In this document: one piece after another, positions 12,654 through 29,894 of the stretch
Numbering within the stretch: position 1 is the stretch's first letter
Layout of the letters: every line of letters begins with the position of its first letter
Source of the DNA: Candidatus Saccharimonadota bacterium
Lineage (GTDB): Bacteria; Patescibacteriota; Saccharimonadia; Saccharimonadales; UBA4665
NCBI GenBank assembly: GCA_003516025.1
Contig: CP023991.1
Span: forward strand, 751,374 to 783,373
Length of the DNA: 32,000 nucleotides
Direction of reading: 5' to 3'
Program-made: the position numbers and the translations under genes
Notes under the pieces: model-generated
What the model saw: the letters and a program-made list of their open reading frames with translations, nothing else
What the model was told of the DNA's origin: nothing
The model's database searches: none

Positions 12654-13823
12654 TTATTTTATATCTTTGGCTTTTTCAAACAGCATCGAAGCAATGGCAG
12701 CTGCCGCGTCAGGGCGGCCGAATGAGGCAAAATTCCGGGACAATTCGGCGGTTTTATCAGGGTGGTCAAACAAATCAGATACCACGCTGGCGAGGCGCAA
12801 TTCCTGCTCGATCTGGTCTTCAGTCATCTCTATTATAGCCCCCCGGCGCTTTAAGACAGCCGTATTTTTAAGCTGGTGGCCACCGGTTAACACTGGACTC
12901 GGTATGATGATGCTCGGTTTAGCTTGGACGGCCAGTTCAGCAAGATTAGTGGCGCCCGCCCGGGCAATAACTACGTTAGCCGCGCCGGTATACTCGTACA
13001 TATTAGTTACAAAGCCGACAACTGTAATCCGCTCAAGATCTTGTGGCGAGACAGACTGGGTGTATTGTTGTTTGACGACACTTTCATGAATCCGGCCAGT
13101 CAGATGCACAATCGCCAGCCCGGGATACCGCTGCAACAGGTACGACGCGTTGGCCACCATAGCATCATTCAAACGCTGAGCTCCGAGGCCACCACCGGTT
13201 AGCAACAACACCCATTCATAAGCGCCGAGGCGAACCGCTTCTTTGTAGGCGGCCCGCTGTTTGTCGCTTACCGGGCGGTAGTCGCTGCTGATAGGTACGC
13301 CGACCGTTTCAGTTTTGCTGGCCGGATACGGATACACATCCTTGGGCAAAGCTACGGCATGCACAGCAGCCCAGTGGGCGATTAAGCGGTTCGTCAGGCT
13401 GGGGATGGCATCCGAATCATGCGTAACATAGGGAATTCCCCGCGCTGCCGCCGCCAGACAAACCGGAACGCTCACATAGCTGCCGCGCGTAAAGATAATG
13501 CTCGGCTTAACCCGCCGGAGCAACCAGAAGCTCTGCCATAAGCCTATCAAAATAAACAAAGCGTCCCGAACGTTTAAGTACATGGTTTTCAGGTCGAGCA
13601 GCTGCCGCCACCCTTCCCCGTGGTAACGGCGGAACTTACCGGCCCGAACGCTGACCATTTCGTCGATATTAGTGTCCTGTCCCGGCACGTCATCAAGCGG
13701 ATCGTTCGTATGGCTGACGTATACAATACGGATATCAGGGCGTTGTTTTTTGAGCTCGCGCGCGACTGCCAGGATTGGGGTGATATGCCCCCCGGAGCCG
13801 CCGCCCGTCACGACTATAGTCAT
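12654..13823 (-). CDS. murG: UDP-N-acetylglucosamine--N-acetylmuramyl-(pentapeptide) pyrophosphoryl-undecaprenol GlcNAc transferase MurG
   Basis: N-terminus MTIVVTGGGSGGHITPILAVAREL, plus LLTGGGLGA and ARAGATNLAEL motifs. It sits in the expected dcw context. An AAGGAAA element precedes the ATG. Confidence 0.95.
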   Translation of the reverse strand: MTIVVTGGGSGGHITPILAVARELKKQRPDIRIVYVSHTNDPLDDVPGQDTNIDEMVSVRAGKFRRYHGEGWRQLLDLKTMYLNVRDALFILIGLWQSFWLLRRVKPSIIFTRGSYVSVPVCLAAAARGIPYVTHDSDAIPSLTNRLIAHWAAVHAVALPKDVYPYPASKTETVGVPISSDYRPVSDKQRAAYKEAVRLGAYEWVLLLTGGGLGAQRLNDAMVANASYLLQRYPGLAIVHLTGRIHESVVKQQYTQSVSPQDLERITVVGFVTNMYEYTGAANVVIARAGATNLAELAVQAKPSIIIPSPVLTGGHQLKNTAVLKRRGAIIEMTEDQIEQELRLASVVSDLFDHPDKTAELSRNFASFGRPDAAAAIASMLFEKAKDIK

Positions 13824-15084
13824 ACGAGGTTTCCTTTTTTAGACCACTACTTTCACTCTTACGGGGTGCCTGCTGGGCAGTATAGTACGAAACCTGGAAT
13901 ACCAGTCCCACGGCCGCCGCTACAAAAACTACACTGGTACCACCGGAGCTGATAAACGGTAACGTAATACCCTTCAGTGGCAACAGTCCAATCATAGCAC
14001 CGACGTTCACCAGCGCCTGGATGCTCAACCAGGCCAGCACCCCGATGGTTAGCAGCTGGCTGAACATATCTGGCGCCCGCTCGGCTATCCGTTTGATACG
14101 CGCGAAAAACATTAAGAGTATGCCGAGCAGTATGGTGACACCCACAAAACCGAATTTTTCAGCGTAGACCGCGAAAATGGAATCATTGGAGGCTTCCGGC
14201 AAGTATCCGTATGCCTGAACACTACGGCCGAGACCAAGCCCCGCGAAGCCTCCGGAACCGACGGCTATTAACGCCTGGCAGGCCTGGTAACCGCTCGTAG
14301 TCTGACAATTTTCCTCGGGATGTAAAAACGTTGTGATACGGGCACGACGGTAATCAGACGGCAGCACGACTAGAATGACGCCAATCGCCAGTACGCCGGC
14401 CAGCATAGCCAGGCGTTTCATAGGCACGCCAGCAACAAAGGCCATCACCGACAGCATTACGATGATAACACCCATGGAACCAAGATCACTTTGGCCATGC
14501 AGGCCGCCTGGACCGGCCACGATTACACCGATTACCAATAAAGCGATTAAGAGCGGCTTTAGGGTGGATGTAAAATTATCAAGCTGGCCCTTAGCCGCCT
14601 GAGTGGCTAAAAAGCCGCCTACGCCCAGTAGGAGACCAAACTTAAGCAGTTCTACTGACTGAAACGAAAAACCGCCCAGCCGCACCCAGCGGTGGGCAGG
14701 ATACGACGGATTGAGCGGCGTGACGAGCGCGATCAAGGTAGCGATCGCTGCCGCGATCAATATCGGCTTGGTAAAACGGCGCCAGACGGGCAGCGGTACC
14801 CGGGCGGCCACAATAAAAGCGATGACACTTAAAAATACGGCGATCAGCTGGTGGGCGATAAATTGACCGCTCGACCCCTTCCCGGCGGCGGCCATAGCCG
14901 GACTGATGGAATAAACCACTATCAGACCTATCGATAGCATTACAAGGCTCAGGATAACTAACAGGTAGTCAGGCCGGTGCTTGCGCCCCATGCTCATACT
15001 TGTAGCGGCTTGACGCGTACCGCCGGCTGGCCTGCCCCGCATCCTGTCTCCCCGAACCGCGCGGTCTCCACCGACCGGCATCAT
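13735..15084 (-). CDS. ftsW: Peptidoglycan glycosyltransferase FtsW (SEDS family)
   Basis: About 10 TM segments and SEDS blocks (QSVELLKF, GQSDLGS, PEASNDSIFA, GLLPLKGITLPFISSGGTS). It lies between mraY and murG. The C-terminal tail runs 89 nt into murG in another frame. Confidence 0.9.
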   Translation of the reverse strand: MMPVGGDRAVRGDRMRGRPAGGTRQAATSMSMGRKHRPDYLLVILSLVMLSIGLIVVYSISPAMAAAGKGSSGQFIAHQLIAVFLSVIAFIVAARVPLPVWRRFTKPILIAAAIATLIALVTPLNPSYPAHRWVRLGGFSFQSVELLKFGLLLGVGGFLATQAAKGQLDNFTSTLKPLLIALLVIGVIVAGPGGLHGQSDLGSMGVIIVMLSVMAFVAGVPMKRLAMLAGVLAIGVILVVLPSDYRRARITTFLHPEENCQTTSGYQACQALIAVGSGGFAGLGLGRSVQAYGYLPEASNDSIFAVYAEKFGFVGVTILLGILLMFFARIKRIAERAPDMFSQLLTIGVLAWLSIQALVNVGAMIGLLPLKGITLPFISSGGTSVVFVAAAVGLVFQVSYYTAQQAPRKSESSGLKKETSYDYSRDGRRLRGAYHPNPGSRARAQKTTP

Positions 15085-15085
15085 G

Positions 15086-16126
15086 TTAGCTGAATCTCCC
15101 GACCAGGAATATCAGTAAACCTGTTACACCGGCTACTTGCCCCAAGATCCAAAAACGCATAGTAACTTTGGGCTCCGGCCAGCCTAAAGCCTCGAAATGA
15201 TGATGGATTGGCGATGACAAAAACACTTTCTTACCGTTCCGTAGTTTCCGGGATAGACGGTTGATGATAACTGATGCGGTTTCCATAACGTATACCGCGC
15301 CGATGACCGGCAGCACGTAAACCGTATCGGTCTGCATGGCGATGATTCCCAAAGCGGTTCCAAGCGCGAAAGCGCCGACATCGCCCATAAAGAAACGGGC
15401 GGGGAAAATATTGAACCAGGTATAGCTCAGCAACGCGCCGACCACTGTCAGGCAGAAGGCCGCCAGCGAATATTTGCCTTCCACCATACAAATCACCGCG
15501 TAAGTGGCGAATGATGACGCCAGCAAACCGCCGGCCAGGCCGTCCAAGCCGTCGGAAATATTGACCGAGTTAGCCGTGGCGACAACCACCAGCCAGAACA
15601 GCGCGATAACAAAAGCTCCGATGTAGACATGCTCCAGACCAGGTATATAAACAGTGGTGACATCCAGTTTTGACCAGAACCACCAGCCGCCAACCAGCGC
15701 GACCAGGCTGTATAAGCCAAACTTAACAGTTGAACGCATGCCGGCGATTTTAGAGTTGCCGCGGATATTCATAATGTCGTCTATCAGCCCAATAACAGCG
15801 GCGCCAGCCATACCGGCCAACGGCAGCCAGGTTTCACCGCGCGTCAGGTTGCCCGTTAACGTAACCAGCAGGATAACAACGACGAAAATCAGTCCTGCCA
15901 TTGTTGGAATATTGCGCAAATGCTTGGCGGCATGCAGTTTACTGTAAACGGCCGCCGAACCACCCGACCACGATTCGGTACGAGCCTTTTTCCACCACTG
16001 CTTCCGGTAGGCTATCGTCGTATATACCGGTGTCAGGAACATAGCCAGCACGAAAGCCAGGAAGCCGAACAGGAAAATTCCTATGAGAGTTCCGGTATTG
16101 ATGGCGAAATGCAGGGTTTCATTCAT
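15086..16126 (-). CDS. mraY: Phospho-N-acetylmuramoyl-pentapeptide transferase MraY
   Basis: Polytopic membrane protein with GLIDDIMNI, NSVNISDGLDGLAGG, FMGDVGAFALG and PIHHHFE motifs. Confidence 0.95.
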   Translation of the reverse strand: MNETLHFAINTGTLIGIFLFGFLAFVLAMFLTPVYTTIAYRKQWWKKARTESWSGGSAAVYSKLHAAKHLRNIPTMAGLIFVVVILLVTLTGNLTRGETWLPLAGMAGAAVIGLIDDIMNIRGNSKIAGMRSTVKFGLYSLVALVGGWWFWSKLDVTTVYIPGLEHVYIGAFVIALFWLVVVATANSVNISDGLDGLAGGLLASSFATYAVICMVEGKYSLAAFCLTVVGALLSYTWFNIFPARFFMGDVGAFALGTALGIIAMQTDTVYVLPVIGAVYVMETASVIINRLSRKLRNGKKVFLSSPIHHHFEALGWPEPKVTMRFWILGQVAGVTGLLIFLVGRFS

Positions 16127-16165
16127 ATCTGTGTTTGATCTTCTCTGATTATTATACCAGTAAGC

Positions 16166-17956
16166 CTAATTTTTCGCGGCAACCCGTGAATTATTGATCA
16201 GCATGTGGGCGATATCGCCAAAGACAGGCTGGGCGGCGGCCGTACCGGCATAACCGCCATTCTTCGGCTTGTTCATGAATACGGCGATAACATACTGCGG
16301 CTTCTGCCCGCCTACGAACCCGAGGTATGTGCCATTGAAGTCATTTTCAAAATAACCGCCACCCGGCTTGGCGATCTGGGCCGTACCGGTCTTACCGCCA
16401 ACCATATAGCGGTTCTGGTCAAAACCGGGGCTAAAACTATGATGATCGACAGTATACTGCATCATCGGAATCAGGGCGTCAGTTACCGATTGCGAGACTA
16501 CGCTGCTGCGTACAATCTGCGGTTCAGTTTTCTCTACCTTGCCCTGCGGGTTAACTGTACCATCCACCAGGTGCGGCTTATAATAAGTGCCCCCGTTAAT
16601 GATGGAGGCCATAGCGGCAGCCATCTGTACCGGCGTGGCCGTCATTGCCTGCCCAAAAGTCGTGTTGGCGTATGTCAGATTGATGCCCGCGCCGTTATCT
16701 TTTGGAGCTGGCACGTAGCCCGGAGCCTCAAACCCCTGTTCAATACCGGTCTCTGTGCCGAATTGGTAACGATTGGTCATGTAATCGTACCAGGTAGCGC
16801 GCGCCTTGGCATTGATGGTTCCACCGCCCATCTGCATCAGTTCCCAGGTAGCGCCCGTGTTAAGTGACAGGTTCAAAATGTCACGGATACTGCGCACGCC
16901 GGCCGGACCATCTTCTTCGATGTTAGTAATAGTAAAATCGTCGACTTTATATTTCGCCGGATCATTATACGTTTGATTAGGCCGGATCACCCGGGCATCA
17001 AGCGCGGCCGCGGTAGTCAGCGGTTTCATGATAGAACCGACCTCTATCGGATTGACGGCGGCGTTATTTGAAAACAGTGCGGCATCGTCGACATCGGAGT
17101 ACTTAGACGGATCATACGTCGGATAGTTAGCCATCGCCTTAATAGCACCGCTGTTAACATCCATAATTACCGCGCTGCCGCTATCCGCTTTGGTCTTTTC
17201 GACGCCTTTCTGCAACAGGGTTTCAACTTGCTTCTGCATGGCGATATCAATGGTAAGCGCCAGGTCCTTGCCTGCTTCGGCCCTGGTTTCCACATTTCCA
17301 GCGCTGGCGGCCAGCGGCACGCCATGAACATCGGTGATTGCCTTGAGCTCACCCGGCTTGCCTTTGAGTTCACTGTTAAGCGCCTGCTCGATGCCATAGG
17401 TTCCCTTACCCTCGTCGTTCACAAAACCCAACACCTGGGAAGCAAGTGTTCCCTGCGGATAGGTGCGATAGTCCTGCTGCTGGCTGCCGATGCCAGGAAG
17501 CTTCAGTTTAAGCAGCTTTTCGTTCTGCGCCTGACTGATTTTTTTGCCAATTATTTGGTAACGGCTGTCCTTAACTGTCATCAGGTCTTCATATTTGCCA
17601 CGGTCACCACCAATAACGTCAGCCACCTTACCGGCAGTTTTCGCAGCGTCCTTGATATACGCCGGGTCGGCGTATATGGTATACAGCTTTTCATTCAGGA
17701 CAATTGGGATGGCATGGTCACCATCGTAAGCCAATATGGTGCCTCGGCTGGCCGGAATTTCATATTGTTTTAACTGGTCCGATAAAGCCGCGTTTTTATA
17801 ATGGTCATAGCGGATAATTTGCAGGTAAAACAAACGTACAAAAAAAATTGCCAGCACCACCACTAAGGCTGCGTACCAAAAACGGACACGCCGTGCCGCG
17901 CTATACGGAGATACCGATGGTCCCTCGCTTGAATTGTGTAGTTGCCCTACTGCCAT
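16166..17956 (-). CDS. ftsI: Class B penicillin-binding protein / peptidoglycan D,D-transpeptidase FtsI
   Basis: N-terminal TM anchor, a PBP dimerisation region, and the transpeptidase triad SIMK (SxxK), SLN (SxN) and KTGTA (KTG). dcw context. Confidence 0.9.
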   Translation of the reverse strand: MAVGQLHNSSEGPSVSPYSAARRVRFWYAALVVVLAIFFVRLFYLQIIRYDHYKNAALSDQLKQYEIPASRGTILAYDGDHAIPIVLNEKLYTIYADPAYIKDAAKTAGKVADVIGGDRGKYEDLMTVKDSRYQIIGKKISQAQNEKLLKLKLPGIGSQQQDYRTYPQGTLASQVLGFVNDEGKGTYGIEQALNSELKGKPGELKAITDVHGVPLAASAGNVETRAEAGKDLALTIDIAMQKQVETLLQKGVEKTKADSGSAVIMDVNSGAIKAMANYPTYDPSKYSDVDDAALFSNNAAVNPIEVGSIMKPLTTAAALDARVIRPNQTYNDPAKYKVDDFTITNIEEDGPAGVRSIRDILNLSLNTGATWELMQMGGGTINAKARATWYDYMTNRYQFGTETGIEQGFEAPGYVPAPKDNGAGINLTYANTTFGQAMTATPVQMAAAMASIINGGTYYKPHLVDGTVNPQGKVEKTEPQIVRSSVVSQSVTDALIPMMQYTVDHHSFSPGFDQNRYMVGGKTGTAQIAKPGGGYFENDFNGTYLGFVGGQKPQYVIAVFMNKPKNGGYAGTAAAQPVFGDIAHMLINNSRVAAKN

Positions 17957-17988
17957 AAGCTTTTAGCTAGTATAGCACGATTAACGGA

Positions 17989-18342
17989 TTAGTCCTGGAC
18001 AGTTCCGGATGGCGTAACGGGCACCATGGCAGTAGCCTCGGCGCTATCCTGTACGCGGTCCAGTGATTGTAAACGGGCCGATGCCACTTCAAGGTCGTCA
18101 TGTTCGGTTTTGAGATCTGTTTGCTGCTGGCTCAGGCCGTTAAGCTGGTAGCCGTAAGCATTAGTTTTGGTTACTTGCGTAAGATACAACAATCCCAGCA
18201 AGCAAGCCAGCACGATAAGCATTACTGTGTTACTGACCGGTCCAAGCCTGGTACTTCGTTGTTTACGGAAGTCTACAGCGTTTTGATTACGCCCCGCGAA
18301 GCGTTGTTGCCGTGAGACGGAGAGGGTGCTTGAATAAGTCAT
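17989..18342 (-). CDS. ftsL: Cell division protein FtsL-like (small bitopic coiled-coil protein)
   Basis: 117 aa with a basic N-terminus, a single TM helix (VMLIVLACLLGLLYL) and then a heptad-like segment. It sits directly upstream of ftsI, as FtsL does in dcw clusters. Confidence 0.6.
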   Translation of the reverse strand: MTYSSTLSVSRQQRFAGRNQNAVDFRKQRSTRLGPVSNTVMLIVLACLLGLLYLTQVTKTNAYGYQLNGLSQQQTDLKTEHDDLEVASARLQSLDRVQDSAEATAMVPVTPSGTVQD

Positions 18343-18616
18343 AATAACCGCCTTTCTGTTTGTTTTCTTTTTTATGTTTAGGGTTTATGGCGCGTACGGC
18401 AGCAAGAAAAAACCAAGCTTACACAGCAGATGCCGTGAAGCCGTGTCCTTTACTGATGCCGTGGGGGGGTAGTAGCGTGGGTTAGAGGACGAATCCCCTA
18501 ACCCGTAACTGACCGCTGGAAGTCTAAATTAGACTACTTTGACCTGTACTTTATAAGCACGTGATGTAGATTTGATTTGGATTGGCATAATGCTTTTCCT
18601 TTCTTTAGAATTATTT

Positions 18617-19537
18617 TTAATTTTTTATTTTCACTGCGGCCCGTAGTTTTGCGCTTCGGGAACGCGGATTGTGAACAAGTTCAGTTGCCTCAGCAGTAGT
18701 GGGACGCTTGGTGAGTAACCGTATGGTTGCGTCATACCTGTCGCCGCTGAGATCGGCCAACAGATTCTTTACGAGCCTGTCTTCGAGGCTCTGGAAACTA
18801 ATAATACAGATACGTCCTTCCGGCTTCAGTAAATTAATCCACTGTGGGAGGTTTTTGCTGAGGAGACCGAGTTCGTCATTGACGGCAATACGGACAGCCT
18901 GGAATGTGCGGGTAGCGGGATGGACTTTGCTGTGTCCCGGCCAAACTTTGGCGGCGACTGCCGCCAGCTCGATAGTTGTTGCTAGAGGACGAGCGGCGAT
19001 AATCGCTTTGGCGATTGCCCTGGCTTTTGGTTCCTCTCCGTAGCGTGTCAGAATATCGATCAACTGCTCTTCCGAATAGCTATTTACTATCCGTTCTGCG
19101 GTTAATTCCTGATCCTGATCCATACGCATATCGAGCGGACCATTCTGGGCCAAGGAAAAGCCTCGTGCGGCTTGGTCAAGGTGCGGGCTGGATACACCAA
19201 GGTCTGCCAGAATAACATCAAACTGCGCTTTTTCTGAAACCAACTGTGTAGTAGCGGTACCGAAATCAGCGTGCACCAAACGGACCGTGTCACCAAACCG
19301 TTCGGTCAGCGATGCAATTGCATTACTGTCGCGGTCGACGAGTACGGCCTTTTCCGGAGCCTGTGTACGTTCCAGTATTCGTGCGGCGTGTCCGCCGTAT
19401 CCAGCTGTTAAGTCGAGATAAGTCTCGCCTTTTTGGGGAGCTAAATACCGCAGCACTTCTTCGACGAGTACCGGAATATGCACGGCACCTTCTGCAGGCG
19501 TGCTTGATGGTTGTGGCATGACTTTGGATGCGTTCAT
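18617..19537 (-). CDS. rsmH: 16S rRNA (cytosine1402-N4)-methyltransferase RsmH/MraW
   Basis: HIPVLVEEV, DLTAGYGGHA, LADLGVSSPHLD and SFQSLEDRLVK motifs. dcw context. Confidence 0.95.
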   Translation of the reverse strand: MNASKVMPQPSSTPAEGAVHIPVLVEEVLRYLAPQKGETYLDLTAGYGGHAARILERTQAPEKAVLVDRDSNAIASLTERFGDTVRLVHADFGTATTQLVSEKAQFDVILADLGVSSPHLDQAARGFSLAQNGPLDMRMDQDQELTAERIVNSYSEEQLIDILTRYGEEPKARAIAKAIIAARPLATTIELAAVAAKVWPGHSKVHPATRTFQAVRIAVNDELGLLSKNLPQWINLLKPEGRICIISFQSLEDRLVKNLLADLSGDRYDATIRLLTKRPTTAEATELVHNPRSRSAKLRAAVKIKN

Positions 19538-19634
19538 CCGATTAGTTTACCATTTACCGGTGCAAACTAGGTTGCGACCAGCGGTGTTGTATGCCCTACC
19601 CTGTGGGTATAAGCGCGTTTTTTGTTTTGGTGAT

Positions 19635-19970
19635 GTTTTTGTTTTTAGTCACTACTTTCGTAGCGGCTTCCAGGTCACCTAATCAGCAGTCAACTTTTTG
19701 TTTTTGTGCAAATGTTTTTGTTTTTGTGGATTGACCGTTTGTCTTGATGCCTACCAGTATGTTGAGAGTCTGTTAAGCGAGCAAATGGTCAAAAGTTTGA
19801 GAGACTTATGTGTGAGGTGGAGTTTTGGGAGGTGTTTTTGATGAATGTACGAGGGTTTTTAATGTGGTGCCCCAAGATGCCACGATGTGTTGACTGCCGA
19901 ATAGTTAACCTTGAATTGTAAAAGATCGCTGAGACTACGTTTTTGCTTTTAGGTTTTTTGTTTTTTGTAA
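19635..19970 (-). repeat. Dispersed copies of a C/A-rich motif (CAAAAACAAAAAC on the transcribed strand)
   Basis: On the plus strand the copies read GTTTTTGTTTTTa (19635-19647), cTTTTTGTTTTTGTG (19694-19708), TGTTTTTGTTTTTGTGG (19713-19729) and GTTTTTGCTTTTAGGTTTTTTGTTTTTTGTAA (19939-19970). Related tracts precede mraZ (20466-20491) and ftsL (18356-18379). Confidence 0.55.
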
Positions 19971-19979
19971 CCTAATTGC

Positions 19980-20008
19980 ATTATAGCACAAGCGTTTTCA
20001 TTTTCCAA
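19980..20008 (-). promoter_or_regulatory. Candidate internal promoter in the mraZ-rsmH spacer (TTGGAA-17-TGcTATAAT)
   Basis: Reverse complement: TTGGAA (20008-20003), a 17-nt spacer ending in TGc, TATAAT (19985-19980). It would produce a roughly 440-nt 5' UTR for rsmH. Confidence 0.4.
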
Positions 20009-20079
20009 ATTTTTCAGTAAATTCGGTTGCTGTTAATAAATTGTTAATGAACTGTGATTTTATAGGGTTTTACTGCCGC

Positions 20080-20439
20080 TTACGTCTCTGACATAAGCCG
20101 CCAATACTTACCAACCCGCACCGCTACAATGCCCTTGCTGATACCGGCATAGTCCAGCAGGTGCTGTTCTACGCTAAACCGGCCCTGCTTCAGGTCGAGT
20201 TCACCCTCTGTCTTACCCATACGGAACTGTACGTTAAGGTCAGCCGTGGCTTCGTCAAGGATATTTCCTTTCAGTAGCGGCTCCACCTCTTCGTCCCATA
20301 CCATTTTTGGATATAGATGAAGGTAATTTTTGAATCCCCTTGTCACGACTACGCCGCTGGCGAATTCAGCCCTAAGTTCGGTAGGTATGGTTAACCGCCG
20401 CTTATCGTCGAGCTTTCGCTGGAAGTAGTCTATTGTCAT
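20080..20439 (-). CDS. mraZ: Transcriptional regulator MraZ
   Basis: Two SpoVT/AbrB-like halves carry the DxxxR-type motifs LDDKRRLTIPTELR and LDLKQGRFSVEQHL. It is the first gene of the dcw cluster. At 119 aa it is short for MraZ. Confidence 0.88.
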   Translation of the reverse strand: MTIDYFQRKLDDKRRLTIPTELRAEFASGVVVTRGFKNYLHLYPKMVWDEEVEPLLKGNILDEATADLNVQFRMGKTEGELDLKQGRFSVEQHLLDYAGISKGIVAVRVGKYWRLMSET

Positions 20440-22670: not shown

Positions 22671-23204
22671 TTACCGGTAGCCACGGTAGGCGGCGTAACG
22701 CCGTGCCGATCTTCTGCCGTAGTAATATTTGAGCCTGGTGAGTTCCTCATTCACAATCATGAGCGCTGGTATATACAGAAGCACAAGCAGTCCAAGGGGT
22801 TTTCGCGCGAAATCTACCGCATGACCGATATTTGGAAAACCGTATAGTACCTTGCCGGTGATGCCGTTAACCGGCAGGGCCGCGTCGGCTGTCATAACAT
22901 GATCTCCTTTGGTCTGCACGAGTCCCCGCACTGGATCTACCGCTACGACGCGGTGCGTTATGGAAACAGTGCGATTTATGGGACTGGGGTATGTTACGAC
23001 GTCACCAGGAGCCAATGGCCCAAAGTTTCTTGTTTGCAGTACGATGTCACCATGACGCAGTGCCGGCTGCATGCTATCGGTTTGCACGGTTAGCAACCTG
23101 TAGGGACCATAGTGCATGAGCAATATGGTACCAGCGCCACACAACAGGCACACTGTGATTGCTAGTAGCGTACTGAAGTGTTTGAGGCGCCGGTAGCGTG
23201 TCAT
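22671..23204 (-). CDS. Signal peptidase I, SipW/archaeal-ER type (S26B-like)
   Basis: N-terminal TM helix, nucleophile block VQTDSMQPALRHGDIVL, and SITHRVV containing the His of the Ser-His dyad type. It lies directly downstream of a TasA-like substrate gene. Confidence 0.8.
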   Translation of the reverse strand: MTRYRRLKHFSTLLAITVCLLCGAGTILLMHYGPYRLLTVQTDSMQPALRHGDIVLQTRNFGPLAPGDVVTYPSPINRTVSITHRVVAVDPVRGLVQTKGDHVMTADAALPVNGITGKVLYGFPNIGHAVDFARKPLGLLVLLYIPALMIVNEELTRLKYYYGRRSARRYAAYRGYR

Positions 23205-23232
23205 ACTATCCTGTTCCTGCCACGTGAGACCG

Positions 23233-23823
23233 TTATTGGGTTACCGCCGTGCCCGTAAAGACAACGTCGATGCCGGTTATATTCGTGTCCGTGCCGGTGA
23301 AGGCGTCAGAGTCCATGGCAACCTGCATCTTATACTGGGCGACCGCGCCGTTCCCCGCCAGTGTCTCCGTAAGTGGTGTGCCACCGGTAGCATAGCCGGA
23401 AACCAGAGTGCTCAAGGCGATTTTTTGTGGCGTATTGGCATCGATCCGTGTGAAAACAACATACACTTTACTAAGATTAACATTGCCGCTGTTTACCGGC
23501 GTACTGCTTACCGCGGCCTTAATGGTCAGCGCCGCGCTACCACTGTTTTTCAGATAAAAGTCATTACCAACGGTTGGCGCGGCGGGGCCGCCAGGTATAA
23601 CATCCCTGAAAGCGAAGCCAGCCCGGCTGGTGGCGAACGAGGCGGCGCTAGTGCCAATCTGTAGTCCGGCAGTTGCGGTCTGCAACGTATTGCCTGTAAG
23701 TGCTATCTGCTGACTCTGCAAGGCAGCAAATGTAACCCCAGTTGCCAGTACCGCGACTGACGCTATAACCGTAACCGCTCGCATAAGCGGTTGAACTCCC
23801 CGTTGACTACCAAAACGTTTCAT
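23233..23823 (-). CDS. Secreted TasA/camelysin-like protein with SipW-type signal peptide
   Basis: The signal peptide ends in ...LATGVTFAALQS, followed by TGNTLQTATAGLQIG and FAFRDVIPGGP...FYLKNSGSAALTIK. This is the pattern I know from the TasA/CalY (camelysin) family. A strong AAAGGAGGG Shine-Dalgarno element lies 6 nt upstream. Confidence 0.6.
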   Translation of the reverse strand: MKRFGSQRGVQPLMRAVTVIASVAVLATGVTFAALQSQQIALTGNTLQTATAGLQIGTSAASFATSRAGFAFRDVIPGGPAAPTVGNDFYLKNSGSAALTIKAAVSSTPVNSGNVNLSKVYVVFTRIDANTPQKIALSTLVSGYATGGTPLTETLAGNGAVAQYKMQVAMDSDAFTGTDTNITGIDVVFTGTAVTQ

Positions 23824-23919: not shown

Positions 23920-25455
23920 CTAGAGGACGGCATCTTCGCCGAAATGCTTCTGCAACCGTGCCTTAATGGATCCCGGATGCCTGCCAAACTCTTTAGTCAA
24001 TTTGGTAATGGATTTTGGCTTGGGGTCTTCGAAATACTGCAGCAGCTTGGCATCCTCGGCCTCGCTCCAGGGCTTATAAGCGTTTGGATACTTTTCGCGC
24101 ATCTTTTCCAGTTTTTCGGCCCAACTGCCGGCCTTGGTGGTTGATTGGGGCTGAGGCTGCAGTTTTTCGAGAGCTTCGCGTTCCAGAGCCCGTTCACGCA
24201 AATGTTCGAGCCGTTTAGCGTCCTGCTCACTCTTGGTGCGCAGGTGTTTATCAATTTCCAGGGCTTCGGGGCTGATCTGCAGAGCCATGCGGTTTATGCC
24301 CACCAGACTCAGGTTCTGCAGGTTACGCACGCGTGACAGCGCCACATAACCCATCCCCTCTACGAAAGCCCGGCGCAGGTCGATACGGGCAGCGTCAAGC
24401 GTCATGCCTTGGCTTTTATGAACGGTAATCGCCCAGGCCAGCCGCAGCGGAATCTGCGTGATGGAGGCTCGTTTTTTATCGCCGTCGCGCAGTTCCCAGG
24501 TCTCCGGGGTCATGGTAAGCGTACGGCCGCTATGAAGATTAACAATCGGATAACGAGTGCTCTTTTCGAAGTCGATCACGGTACCAAGCGTCCCGTTGGC
24601 CACCCGCTTTTCAGCGCTGTTTTTAATGCACATTACCAGCGCTCCCTTTTTAAGCACCAATACTTCCTGGGCCAGGCACGATCGCTTCAAAGTTTCGACA
24701 TATGACTCTTTGCCTGTGGTAGCCATCTCATAAGACTCTTCGCCTGCTTCCAGGCCGTTCAGACGCTGTTCGTTGATGCGGTCGACGTCGATGTTAACCG
24801 TATGTAATTCAGTGGCCTCATGCTGTTCCAGCGGCGCGTCGACACGCTCCAATAGCTTTTCCGCATGATGGCGGCGGACGTCGCCGGCTCGCATGGCATT
24901 GAGTATCTCCAGAAAATCGTCATCATCCTGGCGGTGCTGCTCCTGCAGGTAACAGATGACCGGATCGAACTCCTCCCAGACTTCAGCATTGACCACGAAA
25001 CTGCCCTGCCGGCCGTCATTCCGGTTTACGGGCGGCAGCTGGAAGAAATCACCACATAAAATAACCTGGATACCGCCAAACGGCCGGTCGTCGCGGCGGA
25101 CCTTACGGGCAACCTCGTCGATCATATCCAACCGGTAGTCGTGCAGCATGGAGATTTCATCGATAATCAGTACGTCGGTCGCCTCGATAATGTCGCGGCG
25201 GCCCTTAAGCAGATGCTCTTCAAACTGCGGGTGCAGTTGGTCCGCGATACCAATCCCGCTCCAGGCATGGATGGTGTTGCCGCCCAGGTGAGTCGCCGCC
25301 AGGCCGGTGGTCGCCGTTACGGCCACGTACTTGTTCTGTTTTTTGGCACGGCGAATAAACTCATTCAAAACATACGTCTTGCCCGAACCGGCTGGTCCTG
25401 TCAGCAATACGTTGTTACCCTCCAGCATTATCTCGAGTGCTAAGCTCTGGTCCAT
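23920..25455 (-). CDS. Pif1/RecD-family SF1 DNA helicase with C-terminal Myb/SANT-like tail
   Basis: Walker A LTGPAGSGKTYVL, Walker B LIIDEISML, the Pif1-type GDFFQLPPV, and ITVHKSQGMTLD. The tail reads WSEAEDAKLLQYF...ITKLTKEFGRHPGSIKARLQKHF. ATG 25455 is preferred over the track's TTG at 25491. Confidence 0.85.
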   Translation of the reverse strand: MDQSLALEIMLEGNNVLLTGPAGSGKTYVLNEFIRRAKKQNKYVAVTATTGLAATHLGGNTIHAWSGIGIADQLHPQFEEHLLKGRRDIIEATDVLIIDEISMLHDYRLDMIDEVARKVRRDDRPFGGIQVILCGDFFQLPPVNRNDGRQGSFVVNAEVWEEFDPVICYLQEQHRQDDDDFLEILNAMRAGDVRRHHAEKLLERVDAPLEQHEATELHTVNIDVDRINEQRLNGLEAGEESYEMATTGKESYVETLKRSCLAQEVLVLKKGALVMCIKNSAEKRVANGTLGTVIDFEKSTRYPIVNLHSGRTLTMTPETWELRDGDKKRASITQIPLRLAWAITVHKSQGMTLDAARIDLRRAFVEGMGYVALSRVRNLQNLSLVGINRMALQISPEALEIDKHLRTKSEQDAKRLEHLRERALEREALEKLQPQPQSTTKAGSWAEKLEKMREKYPNAYKPWSEAEDAKLLQYFEDPKPKSITKLTKEFGRHPGSIKARLQKHFGEDAVL

Positions 25456-25508
25456 ATCGTATGTTCTATTATACAGGGCAGAAGGTTGCAAGCGTAGCCG
25501 GATATGGA

Positions 25509-26654
25509 TTATTTTTCGGCGAACGGACTGGCGGGAACTACGCCGTCTTCTTCGCTTGGTGGTTTCAGCTCGCGTTTGCTCAGTACTTCATAGCGGATAC
25601 CGGTCATCGGGCTTTCCATGTAATCATCGTTCAGCAGGTTGACGAACTTATCCATATCCTTACCATCCATGATGATGATGGCACCCGAGTCGTCGGTCAT
25701 CATTTCAATACCCATTTCCTCGGCATGATCGAGCAACTGGTCCTGTTTAACCATTTCCGGATCAAGTTTCTGTAGTTTTTTAATGATTTTCGCCTTGCCC
25801 TTAATAAGAGACTGGATGCTGTCGCCTTCACCGAAGCTCAGTTTGAAGTTTTCCTCAATTTCGCGGACCTTTTGCTCGGCTATCGAGGCCATCTTGGCGT
25901 CATAGCCAAACAGGCTCTTAAGCTTGGCTTCGCTGAAGACATACATATCCTGGTCGAGAATGAGCAGCTGATTGTCCGGTGGAATCCGCAACGCCGCATC
26001 GGCGTCAAAGGTGACGATTTTGCCGTCACGGATCATCCAGCCGGCACTTCCCTTCATAACCTGTGACTGCGGTAGCTGCTTAATAACGTAGAAGCGCTTT
26101 GGCATCTGCTGGTGGCCAACCCGGGCGATGATGCCCTTCATGCGCTTAATATCGTGTTCTTCCTCGTTAAAGAGTTCAATTTCCTGCTCCTGAGTCTTCA
26201 GCCAGTTCAGAACTTCCTGGGCCTTTTCGACCTTATTCAACTGCGTGCGCTGCAAGACATTATCTTCTTTTTCGGCGTCTTCGAAACCGCGGACGATCAG
26301 GCCGTTATCGGCGCCTTCCAGTACGTATTCCAGAATTTCATCGATAAATAGTGGCTCAAGCTGCTTTTTAAGGTCCGGTACCAGGTTTGTCTTGTAGACG
26401 ACACCGTTTTTGTTAAAGAAGAAAAGGTCGATCTTCAGTTCGTCCTTAAACTGCACTAAGTTATTGGCCCAGGCAAACACATCAGATTCACTGTATCCGT
26501 CGCTAGTGGGCGCGGTTTCAGCTTTGTTGGCAGAGGTTACCGGGATTACTTCGGATTTTGGTAAATCGACCGCTTCGATCGGTGCCACCACCTCTTCCGC
26601 GACTTCAACTGCCGTAAGGGCTTCGTCCTGATCAACTACTGTTGGTTCTTCCAT
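25509..26654 (-). CDS. Hypothetical protein, DUF4868 (KwaB)-like by recollection, with acidic N-terminal extension
   Basis: 381-aa ORF whose first ~55 residues are acidic and low-complexity. The remainder is mixed alpha/beta, with ILDQDMYVFSEAKLKSLFGY and a C-terminal FVNLLNDDYMESPMTGIRYEVL block reminiscent of DUF4868. The confidence value applies to the CDS call; confidence in the family assignment is only about 0.35. Confidence 0.75.
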   Translation of the reverse strand: MEEPTVVDQDEALTAVEVAEEVVAPIEAVDLPKSEVIPVTSANKAETAPTSDGYSESDVFAWANNLVQFKDELKIDLFFFNKNGVVYKTNLVPDLKKQLEPLFIDEILEYVLEGADNGLIVRGFEDAEKEDNVLQRTQLNKVEKAQEVLNWLKTQEQEIELFNEEEHDIKRMKGIIARVGHQQMPKRFYVIKQLPQSQVMKGSAGWMIRDGKIVTFDADAALRIPPDNQLLILDQDMYVFSEAKLKSLFGYDAKMASIAEQKVREIEENFKLSFGEGDSIQSLIKGKAKIIKKLQKLDPEMVKQDQLLDHAEEMGIEMMTDDSGAIIIMDGKDMDKFVNLLNDDYMESPMTGIRYEVLSKRELKPPSEEDGVVPASPFAEK

Positions 26655-26819
26655 GTATTAGTGTGAGCTCCATTTTATGGCCGCATGGTGAGGAGAAGCA
26701 TGAGGCGCTATGTTTTAACGTAAGAACAATTCTAATGGAAGTATAGGCAAAAATCTGCTGTAAAATAGTCAAACCCTTGTGAAACGCGCTACAATAGTTA
26801 AAAGATTGAAGGAGTGGAC

Positions 26820-27440
26820 ATGGACTATAGCATATACAAGACATTAGAGTTCCGGCGTAAGTTTTTCAAGTTGTTCGGAGCGTCCATCGACATCACCAAC
26901 CCTGAGTCAGGCCAGCAGGTCGGCTTTATCCAGATGAAAGCCTGGAAGCTGAAAGAAGACATCCGTATTTTTACCGACAGTTCAATGCAGCAGCAGTTAC
27001 TGCAAATTCATGCCCGCAGCGTTATCGATTTTGGCGCTACATATGACGTTACCGACGCCCCTACCGGTGACAGTCTGTTTTCGCTGCGGCGTAAAGGGCT
27101 ACGCTCTACCTTTGTTCGTGACCGTTGGGAAGTCGCTGATGCTGCCGGAAATACAATCGGCACCGTCCAGGAAACCAGCAGCAGCCTGGCCCTGGTCCGC
27201 CGCTACGTCGGGATTATTCCTATCGTTGGCGAAATCGCTGACATCGCACTTAGTTTCGCACCGCTTACCTATACTATATTTGACGCTGACAACGCGGCCA
27301 TAGCTCAGCTGACTCATCGTAAAAACCCGCTGGTGGTCAAATTCGGACTGGACATTACAAATGAGGCGCACACTCTCGATGCCCGCTTGCCTGTCGCCGT
27401 GACTGCCCTGCTCGCCGTCGTTGACGCTTCAAAAAACTAA
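26820..27440 (+). CDS. LURP-one-related / scramblase-like (tubby C-terminal fold) family protein
   Basis: Repeating beta-strand pattern YKTLEFRRKFFKLFGASIDITNPESGQQVGFIQMKAWKLKEDIRIF... with a hydrophobic C-terminal helix LPVAVTALLAVVD, as in bacterial LOR/YxjI-like proteins. A GAAGGAG Shine-Dalgarno element lies 5 nt before ATG 26820; the track start at 26814 is GTG. Confidence 0.6.
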   Translation: MDYSIYKTLEFRRKFFKLFGASIDITNPESGQQVGFIQMKAWKLKEDIRIFTDSSMQQQLLQIHARSVIDFGATYDVTDAPTGDSLFSLRRKGLRSTFVRDRWEVADAAGNTIGTVQETSSSLALVRRYVGIIPIVGEIADIALSFAPLTYTIFDADNAAIAQLTHRKNPLVVKFGLDITNEAHTLDARLPVAVTALLAVVDASKN

Positions 27441-27476
27441 ATGTAGCTTTCAGCTGCCAGGACTACACTTACTGTT

Positions 27477-27914
27477 GTGAAACTCATACCCAAATACGAT
27501 AAACTGTTCCTCAAAATAACCGTGATCTTTTCGACGGTACTGCAGGTTGTGTTGAACGCCTTACTGATTCTTCTTATCTTCGCCCTTATCATCGGCGTTA
27601 TTAAATCCGGACACGACCTGTTCAGCTCCCTCAACCAGCCCCTCGACAAAGTTTTACAGAAAGTTTTGCTCGACACCGTTTTTATCGTGGCAGTACTGGA
27701 AATATCCATAACTATCCTCGGCTATCTTAAAGATGGTTATGTACATGTCCGTTACATCGTCGACACTATCCTCATCATCATGCTTAACGAAATTGTCGTC
27801 CTGTGGTTTCAGCACCCTGAGCTTCAGGACATGATCGGTATCTCGCTTATCGTCTTCGTACTGGCTCTTATCCGGATATCAGTCACGAAATTCGCGCCTA
27901 AACACGAAGACTGA
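27477..27914 (+). CDS. PsiE-like four-helix membrane protein
   Basis: 145 aa with four hydrophobic segments and a central LEISITILGYLKDGYVHVRYIVDTILIIMLNEIVV block, resembling the phosphate-starvation-inducible PsiE family. GTG start. Confidence 0.55.
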   Translation: MKLIPKYDKLFLKITVIFSTVLQVVLNALLILLIFALIIGVIKSGHDLFSSLNQPLDKVLQKVLLDTVFIVAVLEISITILGYLKDGYVHVRYIVDTILIIMLNEIVVLWFQHPELQDMIGISLIVFVLALIRISVTKFAPKHED

Positions 27915-27917
27915 ATC

Positions 27918-28544
27918 TTAATTGGCGCGGGCTGGTTTACGGGCCGTGGTCTTGCGGTCCTGAGAAGCGGGCCTCCGGTCGTAGTAGCGCAGTTGGCGTT
28001 TAAACTGGTCGAGACGGATGATATATTCTTCATACTTGTTATAAAGCTGGGAGTACTGGAAGCTTGGCGTCAATATATTGAGCAGCCGCTTTTTAGACTC
28101 AAGGTATTCGACCAGCGAGTAGAAATCGCCATCGCCCGACACCAGAATGGCCTTATCGTAATTAGACAGCTCTTTCATTGCCCATAGCACCAGGTCGGCG
28201 TCGATATTTCCCTTAACTGGCTTTTTTTCTTCAGCTTCACCATTGTGGTCCTTGTGGGGTTCGGCGTTCGCGTCAGGCTGCGGTTTAGTCATGTCGTATG
28301 TCGGTTTCAAGACAATGGCGTATCCGGCCTCGTGCAGCTGTTCATAAAGCGGTTCGAACTCGGGAACATAGCCGATAAACATGAATGCCTTGGTAACACC
28401 ATATTCGTCAGCCAGAAATCGGCGGAATTTCTGCCAGTCCATTTTCCAGCCGAACTTTTGTACGCCAACATTCAGGTTCTGACTGTCAATAAAAGCATAG
28501 ACGTTCTTTGGCTTATTTTTCGGATGTGCGGTCGGTTGATTCAT
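27918..28544 (-). CDS. NYN-domain (LabA-like) putative ribonuclease
   Basis: VYAFIDSQNLN (first Asp), AFMFIGY, and GNIDADLVLWAM...AILVSGDGDFYSLVEYL (the NYN acidic cluster). The C-terminal tail is basic. Confidence 0.85.
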   Translation of the reverse strand: MNQPTAHPKNKPKNVYAFIDSQNLNVGVQKFGWKMDWQKFRRFLADEYGVTKAFMFIGYVPEFEPLYEQLHEAGYAIVLKPTYDMTKPQPDANAEPHKDHNGEAEEKKPVKGNIDADLVLWAMKELSNYDKAILVSGDGDFYSLVEYLESKKRLLNILTPSFQYSQLYNKYEEYIIRLDQFKRQLRYYDRRPASQDRKTTARKPARAN

Positions 28545-29456: not shown

Positions 29457-29894
29457 TTAATCTTTCGCGGCTAGATTCCGCTTGCGTGCCTCGTTTGCCC
29501 AGTGGTCGGCCGCCTCATTGCCGGGGTCGTTATTATGTCCGCGCACCCAAATCAGTTTCGCCTGGCCTGAGCGGTGCAGCGGAACAACTTCCTGGACAAT
29601 ATCCAGGTTCATAATCGGGCCGCCTTTTTTCTTCCAGCCATTAGCTTCCCAGGCGATTGACCATTTGGTAATAACGTTAATCCAGAATTCACTATCAGTA
29701 TAAATTTCACAGGGTTGTCCGTTCGCCTCTTTAAGAGCAGCTATGAGCGCGAAGCCTTCCATGCGGATATTGGTCGTAGCGGCGCCGCTCGGTTCTCCGC
29801 CCAGTACGACTGGTTCGCCGGCGGGCGTAACCACCGAAAAACCCCCGGGACCTGGATTTGGACTTGCTGAACCATCAGTATAAAAAGTGAGCAT
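29457..29894 (-). CDS. rnhA: Ribonuclease HI
   Basis: DEDD residues appear in context: FYTDGS, MEGFALIAAL, IYTDSEF, GNEAADHWA. A basic-protrusion-like WKKKGG is present. A TACAAT -10 element (29907-29902) lies 7 nt upstream of the ATG. Confidence 0.92.
   Translation of the reverse strand: MLTFYTDGSASPNPGPGGFSVVTPAGEPVVLGGEPSGAATTNIRMEGFALIAALKEANGQPCEIYTDSEFWINVITKWSIAWEANGWKKKGGPIMNLDIVQEVVPLHRSGQAKLIWVRGHNNDPGNEAADHWANEARKRNLAAKD

Follow-up and report, generated by a model that had tools for sequence, protein, structure and literature searches.

Kiwa is one of the commonest anti-phage systems and, to our knowledge, its effector KwaB has been known solely in that role, in which it requires the membrane sensor KwaA. 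KwaB combines a Rossmann-like N-terminal domain with a DUF4868 C-terminal domain and assembles as a dimer of dimers. It binds single-stranded and double-stranded DNA non-specifically through R142, R167, K187, R233, N134 and D169 and stalls phage replication forks, and KwaA, a protein with four transmembrane segments, tethers it to the membrane, restrains it and activates it (Zhang, Todeschini et al., bioRxiv 10.1101/2023.02.26.530102). The spread of Kiwa is driven by horizontal gene transfer, with about 53% of it on mobile elements and a phylogeny that is incongruent with the host tree (bioRxiv 10.1101/2023.02.26.530102). Here we consider a KwaB-family gene and a Pif1-family helicase gene that follow one another on the minus strand of a stretch of 32,000 nucleotides (nt) from a Saccharibacteria (TM7) chromosome, referred to below as the window. 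An earlier note, made from the sequence alone, had taken the two genes as a candidate defence or DNA-surveillance module lying among accessory-looking genes. Our analysis shows that the first gene encodes a distant KwaB homologue without KwaA, and that it belongs to the conserved chromosomal gene set of Saccharimonadia. We tentatively propose, with a probability of roughly 0.45, that the protein is a KwaB variant that does not depend on KwaA, binds DNA and works together with DNA motors, Pif1 above all, during replication, recombination or repair.

A KwaB homologue without KwaA

The features of the pair, in window coordinates, are:
25509..26654, minus strand: KwaB-family (DUF4868) gene of 381 amino acids (aa), from a KwaA-independent chromosomal clade
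26490..26654, minus strand: acidic disordered N-terminal extension (codons 1-55), variable in sequence and specific to the chromosomal clade
25560..26489, minus strand: two-domain KwaB core (codons 56-365), with a Rossmann-like N domain and a DUF4868 C domain, predicted to bind DNA by family; PADLOC and NCBIfam models align to residues 67-365
25456..25508, minus strand: intergenic spacer, 53 nt to the ATG start of the helicase gene or 17 nt to a TTG start, with TATAAT at 25473-25468
23920..25455, minus strand: Pif1-family superfamily 1B (SF1B) helicase gene, 511 aa from the ATG or 523 aa from the TTG at 25491
23944..24072, minus strand: Myb/SANT-like tri-helical domain at the helicase C-terminus, a marginal assignment from Myb models and a c-Myb profile match

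Both open reading frames (ORFs) are found where the earlier note had placed them, from 26654 to 25509 and from 25455 to 23920, and its assignment of the first to DUF4868 is borne out. The protein matches the Pfam family PF16162 (KwaB) over residues 192-351 with 52.4 bits, against a gathering cutoff of 26.3, and eight PADLOC KwaB models, the best of them at 1.2e-18 over residues 67-365. With its sequence alone, no significant match was obtained in the PDB (E~0.3); a profile built from 22 diverse relatives matches residues 43-317 of KwaB in the PDB with E=8.9e-5. An AlphaFold2 model was also obtained, with a mean predicted local distance difference test (pLDDT) of 70.7 and with residues 1-49 (pLDDT <50) and 198-221 disordered. 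When this model was compared with the PDB by Foldseek, the sole significant matches were Kiwa KwaB structures (9mtn, 9mrx, 9nyu and 9o0i), with E between 5e-11 and 7e-10 and a probability of 1.0 over about 330 columns, so that the homology extends over both domains. The NCBIfam equivalog model for KwaB, NF041623, gives 67.5 bits, under its cutoff of 200, which places the protein below equivalog-level similarity, and identity to Kiwa KwaB is only about 15-25%. Based on the Pfam and PADLOC matches, the profile alignment and the Foldseek result, together with the sub-cutoff equivalog score, the protein is a distant two-domain KwaB homologue. NCBI already labels these proteins 'KwaB-like domain-containing', and we refer to the gene as KwaB-like.

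A homologue search with the protein returned 1937 clusters, of which the top 120 are at least 62% identical to it, and when 1.84 billion cluster representatives were searched exhaustively, only 197 clusters were obtained at E<=1e-3; the KwaB-like subfamily is therefore narrow. The pair has intact reading frames, and some 100 columns of the KwaB-like core do not vary among 44 orthologues. In a low-scoring profile alignment with Kiwa KwaB, K201, R223, K244 (with a one-position offset) and K292 align to the DNA contacts R142, R167, K187 and R233, and in the same alignment N134 and D169 are not conserved in the clade. Basic residues are thus kept at four of the six mutated contact positions, and these four are K or R in 43-44 of the 44 orthologues. 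As judged from these residues, DNA binding may be shared with Kiwa KwaB.

One difference from Kiwa KwaB is at the N-terminus, where Kiwa KwaB lacks the acidic disordered tail of 20-115 aa that is found in the Saccharimonadia protein. In the window, the first 55 aa hold 13 D/E and 2 K/R and are modelled as disordered, in agreement with the acidic N-terminus described in the earlier note. Across 115 orthologues the tail has a median length of 45 aa and a median net charge of -9, and it is net negative in all 115. In most phage and KwaA-linked relatives the N-tail measures just 4-10 aa; a few phage proteins have longer tails, and these are close to neutral.

Another difference is the absence of KwaA, which the earlier note had also remarked on. 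No KwaA match was found among the window neighbours by Pfam (PF28043 included) or PADLOC, and when two genuine KwaA proteins were used as phmmer queries, the six-frame ORFs of the window and of the related loci L001-L032 gave zero hits at E<=10. Only 159 nt separate the KwaB-like gene from the divergent LOR gene upstream of it (described below), and there is therefore no room for a KwaA gene at that position. As opposed to Kiwa, the Saccharimonadia protein has no KwaA and is thus without KwaA-based membrane tethering or sensing.

The Pif1-type helicase

The second gene encodes a Pif1-type SF1 helicase, and all of the motifs from which the earlier note had recognized it are present. The translation carries GPAGSGKT (Walker A), IIDE (Walker B), GDFFQLPPV, VHKSQGMT and the Pif1 signature stretch DMIDEVARKVRRDDRPFGGIQ. 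It scores 131.3 bits with Pfam PIF1, 32 bits with Pif1_2B and 1.7e-63 with PHROG 325 (Dda-like helicase). The full set of SF1B motifs, the Pif1 signature and the 2B/SH3 domain are shared with Pif1/Dda-type helicases such as Bacteroides Pif1 and T4 Dda, and by analogy with these enzymes a 5'-3' helicase activity is expected. Public gene calls for the same genome have the 511-aa form, and orthologues of 503-545 aa (68-85% identical) cover 100% of it. PADLOC matches of the helicase to PDC-S68 and to type IV RecD were rejected as signs of system membership, as these profiles are much longer and are matched in their generic P-loop region only.

What the window helicase adds to the Pif1/Dda type is a C-terminal Myb/SANT-like domain of about 70 aa that follows a charged coiled linker; the Pif1 copies of L028 (422 aa) and L025 (412 aa) are too short to contain it. 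The reading of this tail as Myb/SANT-like is of marginal significance: with Myb_DNA-binding, whose cutoff is 24.4 bits, the tail reaches 24.6 bits when scanned alone and 19.2 bits within the full-length protein, and as a profile it matches c-Myb in the PDB with E=0.0028. Myb models match the tails of 10-12 of 18 orthologues. The tail motif W..KL.KMR..YPNAYKPW...DDAKL..LF...FGRHPGSIRARLKKHFGEDAV is highly conserved, and the helicase motifs are conserved among orthologues as well. The window helicase thereby documents a bacterial Pif1 whose tail is conserved and Myb-like.

Co-transcription of the two genes is possible, as far as can be read from the spacer, where a terminator scan of the minus strand gave no terminator-like site. 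The sequence also reads as a perfect TATAAT at 25473-25468, 12 nt 5' of the Pif1 ATG. No obvious Shine-Dalgarno sequence is found between the two, and a transcript starting from this TATAAT, if it is functional, would be near-leaderless.

When compared with the window helicase, the Pif1 genes that follow KwaB-like genes form two classes by identity, 64-90% and 44-58%, at a similar KwaB-like identity of 60-72% (loci L010, L038-L040, L052, L057, L070-L087 and L108 compared with L001-L009, L043 and L053). This suggests that in some Saccharimonadales Pif1 has either evolved faster or been replaced by a second lineage of the helicase.

Conservation and synteny in Saccharimonadales

The conservation of the locus was examined in 98 loci, from 19 GTDB species-representative genomes and 79 metagenome contigs, with the dcw cluster serving as an anchor for the synteny comparison. 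The window features that matter for this comparison are:
12654-20439: dcw cluster, compact, with MurG, FtsW, MraY, FtsI, a small ORF, RsmH and MraZ
27918..28544, minus strand: NYN (LabA-like) nuclease-domain gene (Pfam NYN, 52.2 bits), the same-strand neighbour found most often near the KwaB-like gene
29457..29894, minus strand: RNase HI gene (Pfam RNase_H, 108 bits), a persistent same-strand neighbour

The pair lies upstream of the dcw cluster, and RNase HI, serine hydrolase and NYN genes, as assigned by Pfam, lie upstream of the pair. In all 98 loci an orthologue of the KwaB-like protein, 52-88% identical, is encoded in this neighbourhood near the dcw cluster. The identity of the orthologues follows that of RsmH (r=0.89, n=9), and composition and GC content present no anomaly. 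Based on the fixed neighbourhood, the RsmH-tracking identity and the unremarkable composition, the KwaB-like gene is vertically inherited and is a conserved chromosomal gene of Saccharimonadia. This differs from Kiwa, which is horizontally transferred and borne by mobile genetic elements (MGEs); the Saccharimonadia gene keeps a fixed chromosomal position in place of a patchy or MGE-linked distribution. The neighbours also differ, being KwaA in Kiwa and Pif1, RNase HI and NYN in Saccharimonadia. The accessory-looking surroundings of the earlier note are, instead, a conserved syntenic block beside the dcw cluster. The note had itself held that its defence idea would fail for a universally conserved syntenic core of the lineage, and as the pair is such a conserved syntenic part, the reading as a defence module in an island-like setting fails.

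Whether the two genes are conserved as neighbours has a divided answer. The region downstream of the KwaB-like gene was informative in 63 of the 98 loci; Pif1 was sought within 6.5 kb, and direct adjacency was defined as at most 300 nt. A same-strand downstream Pif1 is present within this distance in 47/63 loci but directly adjacent in only 10/63, so that proximity is conserved and strict operon coupling is not. The genes in between are heterogeneous (RadC-like, prephenate-dehydratase-like and hypothetical). For a count of neighbours on both sides, we used 22 non-redundant, fully flanked loci with at least 5.9 kb on each side and considered genes within 6 kb. NYN is a same-strand neighbour in 18 of these, Pif1 in 17 and RNase HI in 14, followed by MraZ in 9 and all remaining neighbours in 6 or fewer. 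The order of the KwaB-like and Pif1 genes shuffles, with either one first, and proximity is retained. In distant orthologues at 46-50% identity (L024 and L025) the context is kept with inverted order: L025 reads RNase H, Pif1 (412 aa), small ORF, KwaB-like and CofD, and L024 reads KwaB-like, S8 peptidase, GH1 and CofD. RNase HI stands beside both Pif1 and KwaB-like genes in L025, in L031 and in Southlakia epibionticum.

These counts bear on the explanation that the genes are functionally unrelated neighbours, kept together by gene-order conservation in streamlined genomes, with a separate, for example nucleoid-associated, role for the KwaB-like protein. Such an explanation fits the rarity of adjacency, the heterogeneous intervening genes and the loci without a nearby Pif1 (16/63), as well as the only moderate correlation between KwaB-like and Pif1 identity (r=0.49), the two Pif1 identity classes and the synteny of the entire block, MraZ included. 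The TATAAT in the spacer, which permits independent transcription of Pif1, points in the same direction. We nonetheless consider it quite unlikely, as the pairing recurs away from this block, at 33-44% identity and in different backgrounds, with overlapping or abutting frames (L028, L026 and L031), as adjacency survives inverted order in L025 and S. epibionticum, and as Pif1, NYN and RNase HI are kept near the gene above any other neighbour.

A protein identical to the KwaB-like one is also present on contigs as long as 1.0 Mb, and the close relatives are all labelled Saccharimonadales or Saccharibacteria. A few close orthologues (P0028 and P0206; locus L002) carry the label of Candidatus Limnocylindrales/Limnocylindria (Chloroflexota) metagenome-assembled genomes; these look like mis-binned contigs, because they are 79-89% identical to Saccharibacteria proteins and the contigs are short.

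Relatives on phages and mobile elements

Outside the orthologous group, the relatives at 31-44% identity are without KwaA and are found on phage or MGE contigs, and KwaA-linked KwaB proteins first appear at about 25-27% identity (P0292 and P0313, each with an overlapping upstream PF28043 KwaA, in the Kiwa loci L033 and L035). In an unbootstrapped neighbour-joining (NJ) tree, the KwaA-linked clade stands apart from a clade in which Saccharimonadia chromosomal proteins are mixed with phage and MGE proteins (P0246, P0250, P0254, P0255, L030, L124 and, weakly, PHROG 11123), the latter being 31-44% identical over the full length. Kiwa KwaB thus has a sister clade without KwaA, conserved as a chromosomal gene across a class of ultrasmall epibiotic bacteria and also found in phage RecT modules near DNA motors. 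In the full-text literature on DUF4868 or Kiwa with Saccharibacteria or Patescibacteria, we found no description of a lineage-core KwaA-less clade in Saccharibacteria, of a link of KwaB-like proteins to Pif1, RNase HI or NYN, or of their residence in phage RecT modules.

The gene orders of these KwaA-less loci are:
L029: RecT, SSB, VRR-NUC, methylase, KwaB-like, terminase, portal, Mu-F
L027: RecT, KwaB-like, small ORF, FtsK-PDDEXK, LysM-CHAP lysin
L028 (phage-like): RecT, YqaJ, helix-turn-helix (HTH) protein, KwaB-like, Pif1, HerA-like, 2'-5' RNA ligase
L022: FtsK-PDDEXK, small ORF, KwaB-like
L030 (IMG/VR): capsid, baseplate, amidase/CW_7, HTH, KwaB-like
L124 (IMG/VR): Gp157, RecT, YqaJ, KwaB-like, DnaJ-domain protein
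L026: KwaB-like, overlapping the start of Pif1
L031 (IMG/VR), 1-2674: tyrosine integrase abutting RNase H, KwaB-like, Pif1; the locus ends inside Pif1

RecT, with or without YqaJ, SSB and Gp157, is found near the KwaB-like gene in L027, L028, L029 and L124, and these phage and MGE proteins differ from the chromosomal ones in this early recombination/replication setting and in their N-termini, none of which is a strongly acidic tail and which are mostly 4-10 aa long. Like the chromosomal proteins, they associate with DNA motors. The association of a KwaB-like gene with Pif1 that was noted in the window thus recurs, even on phage-like contigs, at 33-44% identity and with overlapping or abutting frames (L026, L028 and L031); in L028 the Pif1 gene (422 aa) starts 2 nt past the KwaB-like stop. 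Fusions of a PDDEXK nuclease with an FtsK/SpoIIIE translocase (695-715 aa) were also observed, one small ORF away from the KwaB-like gene, at 2686-4773 of L022 and 8369-10516 of L027. Compared with lambda Red-type (exo-bet-gam) and siphovirus RecT/YqaJ modules, the phage KwaB-like gene occupies the slot usual for Gam/SSB-type accessory proteins. Gam and SSB have no sequence or fold relation to the KwaB-like protein, and the likeness should be considered as a positional analogy only.

Further viral relatives were sought in several collections. With the window protein, P0255 and P0242 as queries, tblastn gave no match among 50,697 GenBank phage records, and an IMG/VR search with single KwaB-like proteins gave no confirmed relatives. 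The degenerate motif FVFNQxKFE had zero viral matches, and GAIII[L]DxxD had 10, of which only L124 is genuine. In PHROGs, two phage members matched the unannotated phrog_11123 weakly, and the window KwaB-like protein matched none.

As the closest non-orthologous relatives are phage-borne and both genes are non-essential in transposon sequencing (Tn-seq; see below), the pair could be regarded as the decaying remnant of an ancient prophage replication module without current function. This is extremely improbable, given the intact frames, the core columns that are invariant in the 44 orthologues, the conserved helicase motifs and tail, the acidic tail in every one of the 115 orthologues and the absence of other phage genes near the pair, none of which was seen by Pfam on the window neighbours.

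The pair in cultured Southlakia epibionticum

Published data for the cultured S. epibionticum allow a view of the pair in a living system. In this genome SEML1_0265 is annotated as a DUF4868 protein of 337 aa and SEML1_0264 as a helicase (KEGG K15255, PIF1) in which an SH3 domain lies between two P-loop domains and a tri-helical domain follows, the last being the ECOD assignment for residues 436-505 (Wang et al. 2023, Cell, PMC10633639). The gene order is RNase HI, hypothetical, Pif1, DUF4868, GH1, YvcK, ..., RsmH (PMC10633639). Going by Pfam annotation and gene order, SEML1_0265 and SEML1_0264 are probably orthologous to the window pair. In Tn-seq, both are non-essential at all three passages, with flat normalised reads (6838, 6753 and 6657 for SEML1_0264; 2590, 2504 and 2503 for SEML1_0265), and SEML1_0262 (RNase HI) shows a growth defect (GD) at the last passage after two non-essential (NE) calls (NE, NE, GD; reads 832, 324 and 177) (PMC10633639, Table S1). 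The pair is thus conserved yet dispensable in phage-free co-culture, which is compatible with a stress-conditional role in DNA maintenance as well as with defence. As S. epibionticum is open to genetic manipulation and insertions are tolerated in both genes, the pair is a practicable system for studying DUF4868 without its sensor.

A possible role in DNA handling

Because of the conserved synteny and because the closest outside relatives reside in phage DNA-recombination modules, the two genes resemble a pair for the handling of DNA more than they do a mobile island for defence against phages. In the mechanism that we propose, the KwaB-like protein would be a dimer-forming, non-sequence-specific DNA binder whose core clamps or coats single- or double-stranded DNA at forks, ends or recombination intermediates. 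The co-located Pif1, with its expected 5'-3' polarity and with RNase HI and NYN nearby, would process or clear the structures so bound. The restraint that KwaA exerts on the DNA binder in Kiwa would plausibly be replaced by the acidic disordered N-tail, acting as an intramolecular DNA mimic or as a partner-docking tail. The KwaA-less clade, being common to Saccharimonadia chromosomes and phages, may act in both settings with the motor at hand, which beside the phage genes is Pif1, FtsK-PDDEXK or HerA.

A bolder version of this proposal, which we hold as doubtful, is that KwaB-like, Pif1, RNase HI and NYN form an unrecognised module of Saccharibacteria and their phages for the processing of forks or recombination intermediates, in which a clamp autoinhibited by its acidic tail works with a Myb-tailed 5'-3' helicase. 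Kiwa KwaB would then have been exapted from such a protein under the gating of KwaA, or the reverse. The sister clade points to a source of the Kiwa effector in the DNA-replication/recombination toolkit.

Several points weigh against a DNA-handling role and need to be considered. The AlphaFold2 model is only moderate (pLDDT 70.7), with TM-scores to KwaB of 0.36-0.48, and the mapping of the DNA-contact residues depends on a low-scoring profile alignment. The NJ tree carries no support values. Pif1 is directly adjacent in only 10 of the 63 informative loci and was not seen nearby in 16; as the entire region is syntenic within Saccharimonadales, its proximity there may be inherited rather than selected. 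L031 may be the host flank of an integrated prophage rather than phage DNA, the alternative being a temperate phage that carries the trio. Neutrality in Tn-seq argues against a central housekeeping role and suits defence equally. Finally, the cargo of phages also includes defence and anti-defence genes, and orphan KwaB matches are counted among phage 'defence genes' in a study of the oral virome.

The last points lead to the explanation that competes most directly with DNA handling, namely a chromosomally fixed defence or DNA-surveillance function. In this case the KwaB-like protein would block the replication of invading DNA, Pif1 (with NYN and RNase H) would act as sensor or co-effector in place of KwaA, and the phage copies would serve superinfection exclusion. 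Defence is the only characterised role of the KwaB family, the dispensability of both genes in phage-free culture is what would be seen for defence genes, and Saccharibacteria are naturally competent and constantly exposed to foreign DNA. Pif1/RecD-like helicases and NYN proteins match PADLOC models of candidate systems, and the relatives are often found on phages or MGEs, where orphan KwaB has been reported as above. The matches of the helicase to these models are, however, limited to the generic P-loop region, and with the KwaB equivalog model the protein reaches 67.5 bits where 200 are required. Orthologues at 52-88% identity remain at a fixed dcw-proximal site and track RsmH, unlike the horizontally driven Kiwa, and the sensing and tethering KwaA is absent. 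The phage copies, moreover, are embedded in RecT/YqaJ/SSB early modules, tightly packed with replication-type motors, and not at typical moron sites. We therefore regard fixed defence as unlikely, though a serious contender, and prefer the DNA-handling role set out above. For annotation, an orphan 'KwaB' match in Patescibacteria or in viromes should not be counted as defence.

Surroundings of the pair in the window

The dcw cluster of the window has no mur ligase genes between its members. A dcw cluster without interspersed mur ligases is typical of the reduced genomes of Patescibacteria. Scans of the window for tRNA genes and Rfam families found nothing.

Upstream of the KwaB-like gene, between it and the NYN gene, lies one further feature:
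26814-27914, divergent from the KwaB-like gene: genes for a LURP-one-related (LOR; PF04525, tubby/scramblase-like) protein and a PsiE membrane protein

The LOR and PsiE genes are present in only 4-5 of the 22 fully flanked loci and are always on the strand opposite to the KwaB-like gene. PsiE, which has multiple transmembrane segments, and LOR were considered as substitutes for KwaA and were rejected because of this strand, this rarity and the lack of any KwaA similarity. Downstream of Pif1, at 22671-23823, in the place of the SipW/TasA pair of the earlier note, a gene with a weak Pfam match to S26 signal peptidase adjoins one for a secreted-looking protein of 196 aa that has no Pfam match, and the two are jointly found downstream of Pif1 in only 4 of the 22 loci.

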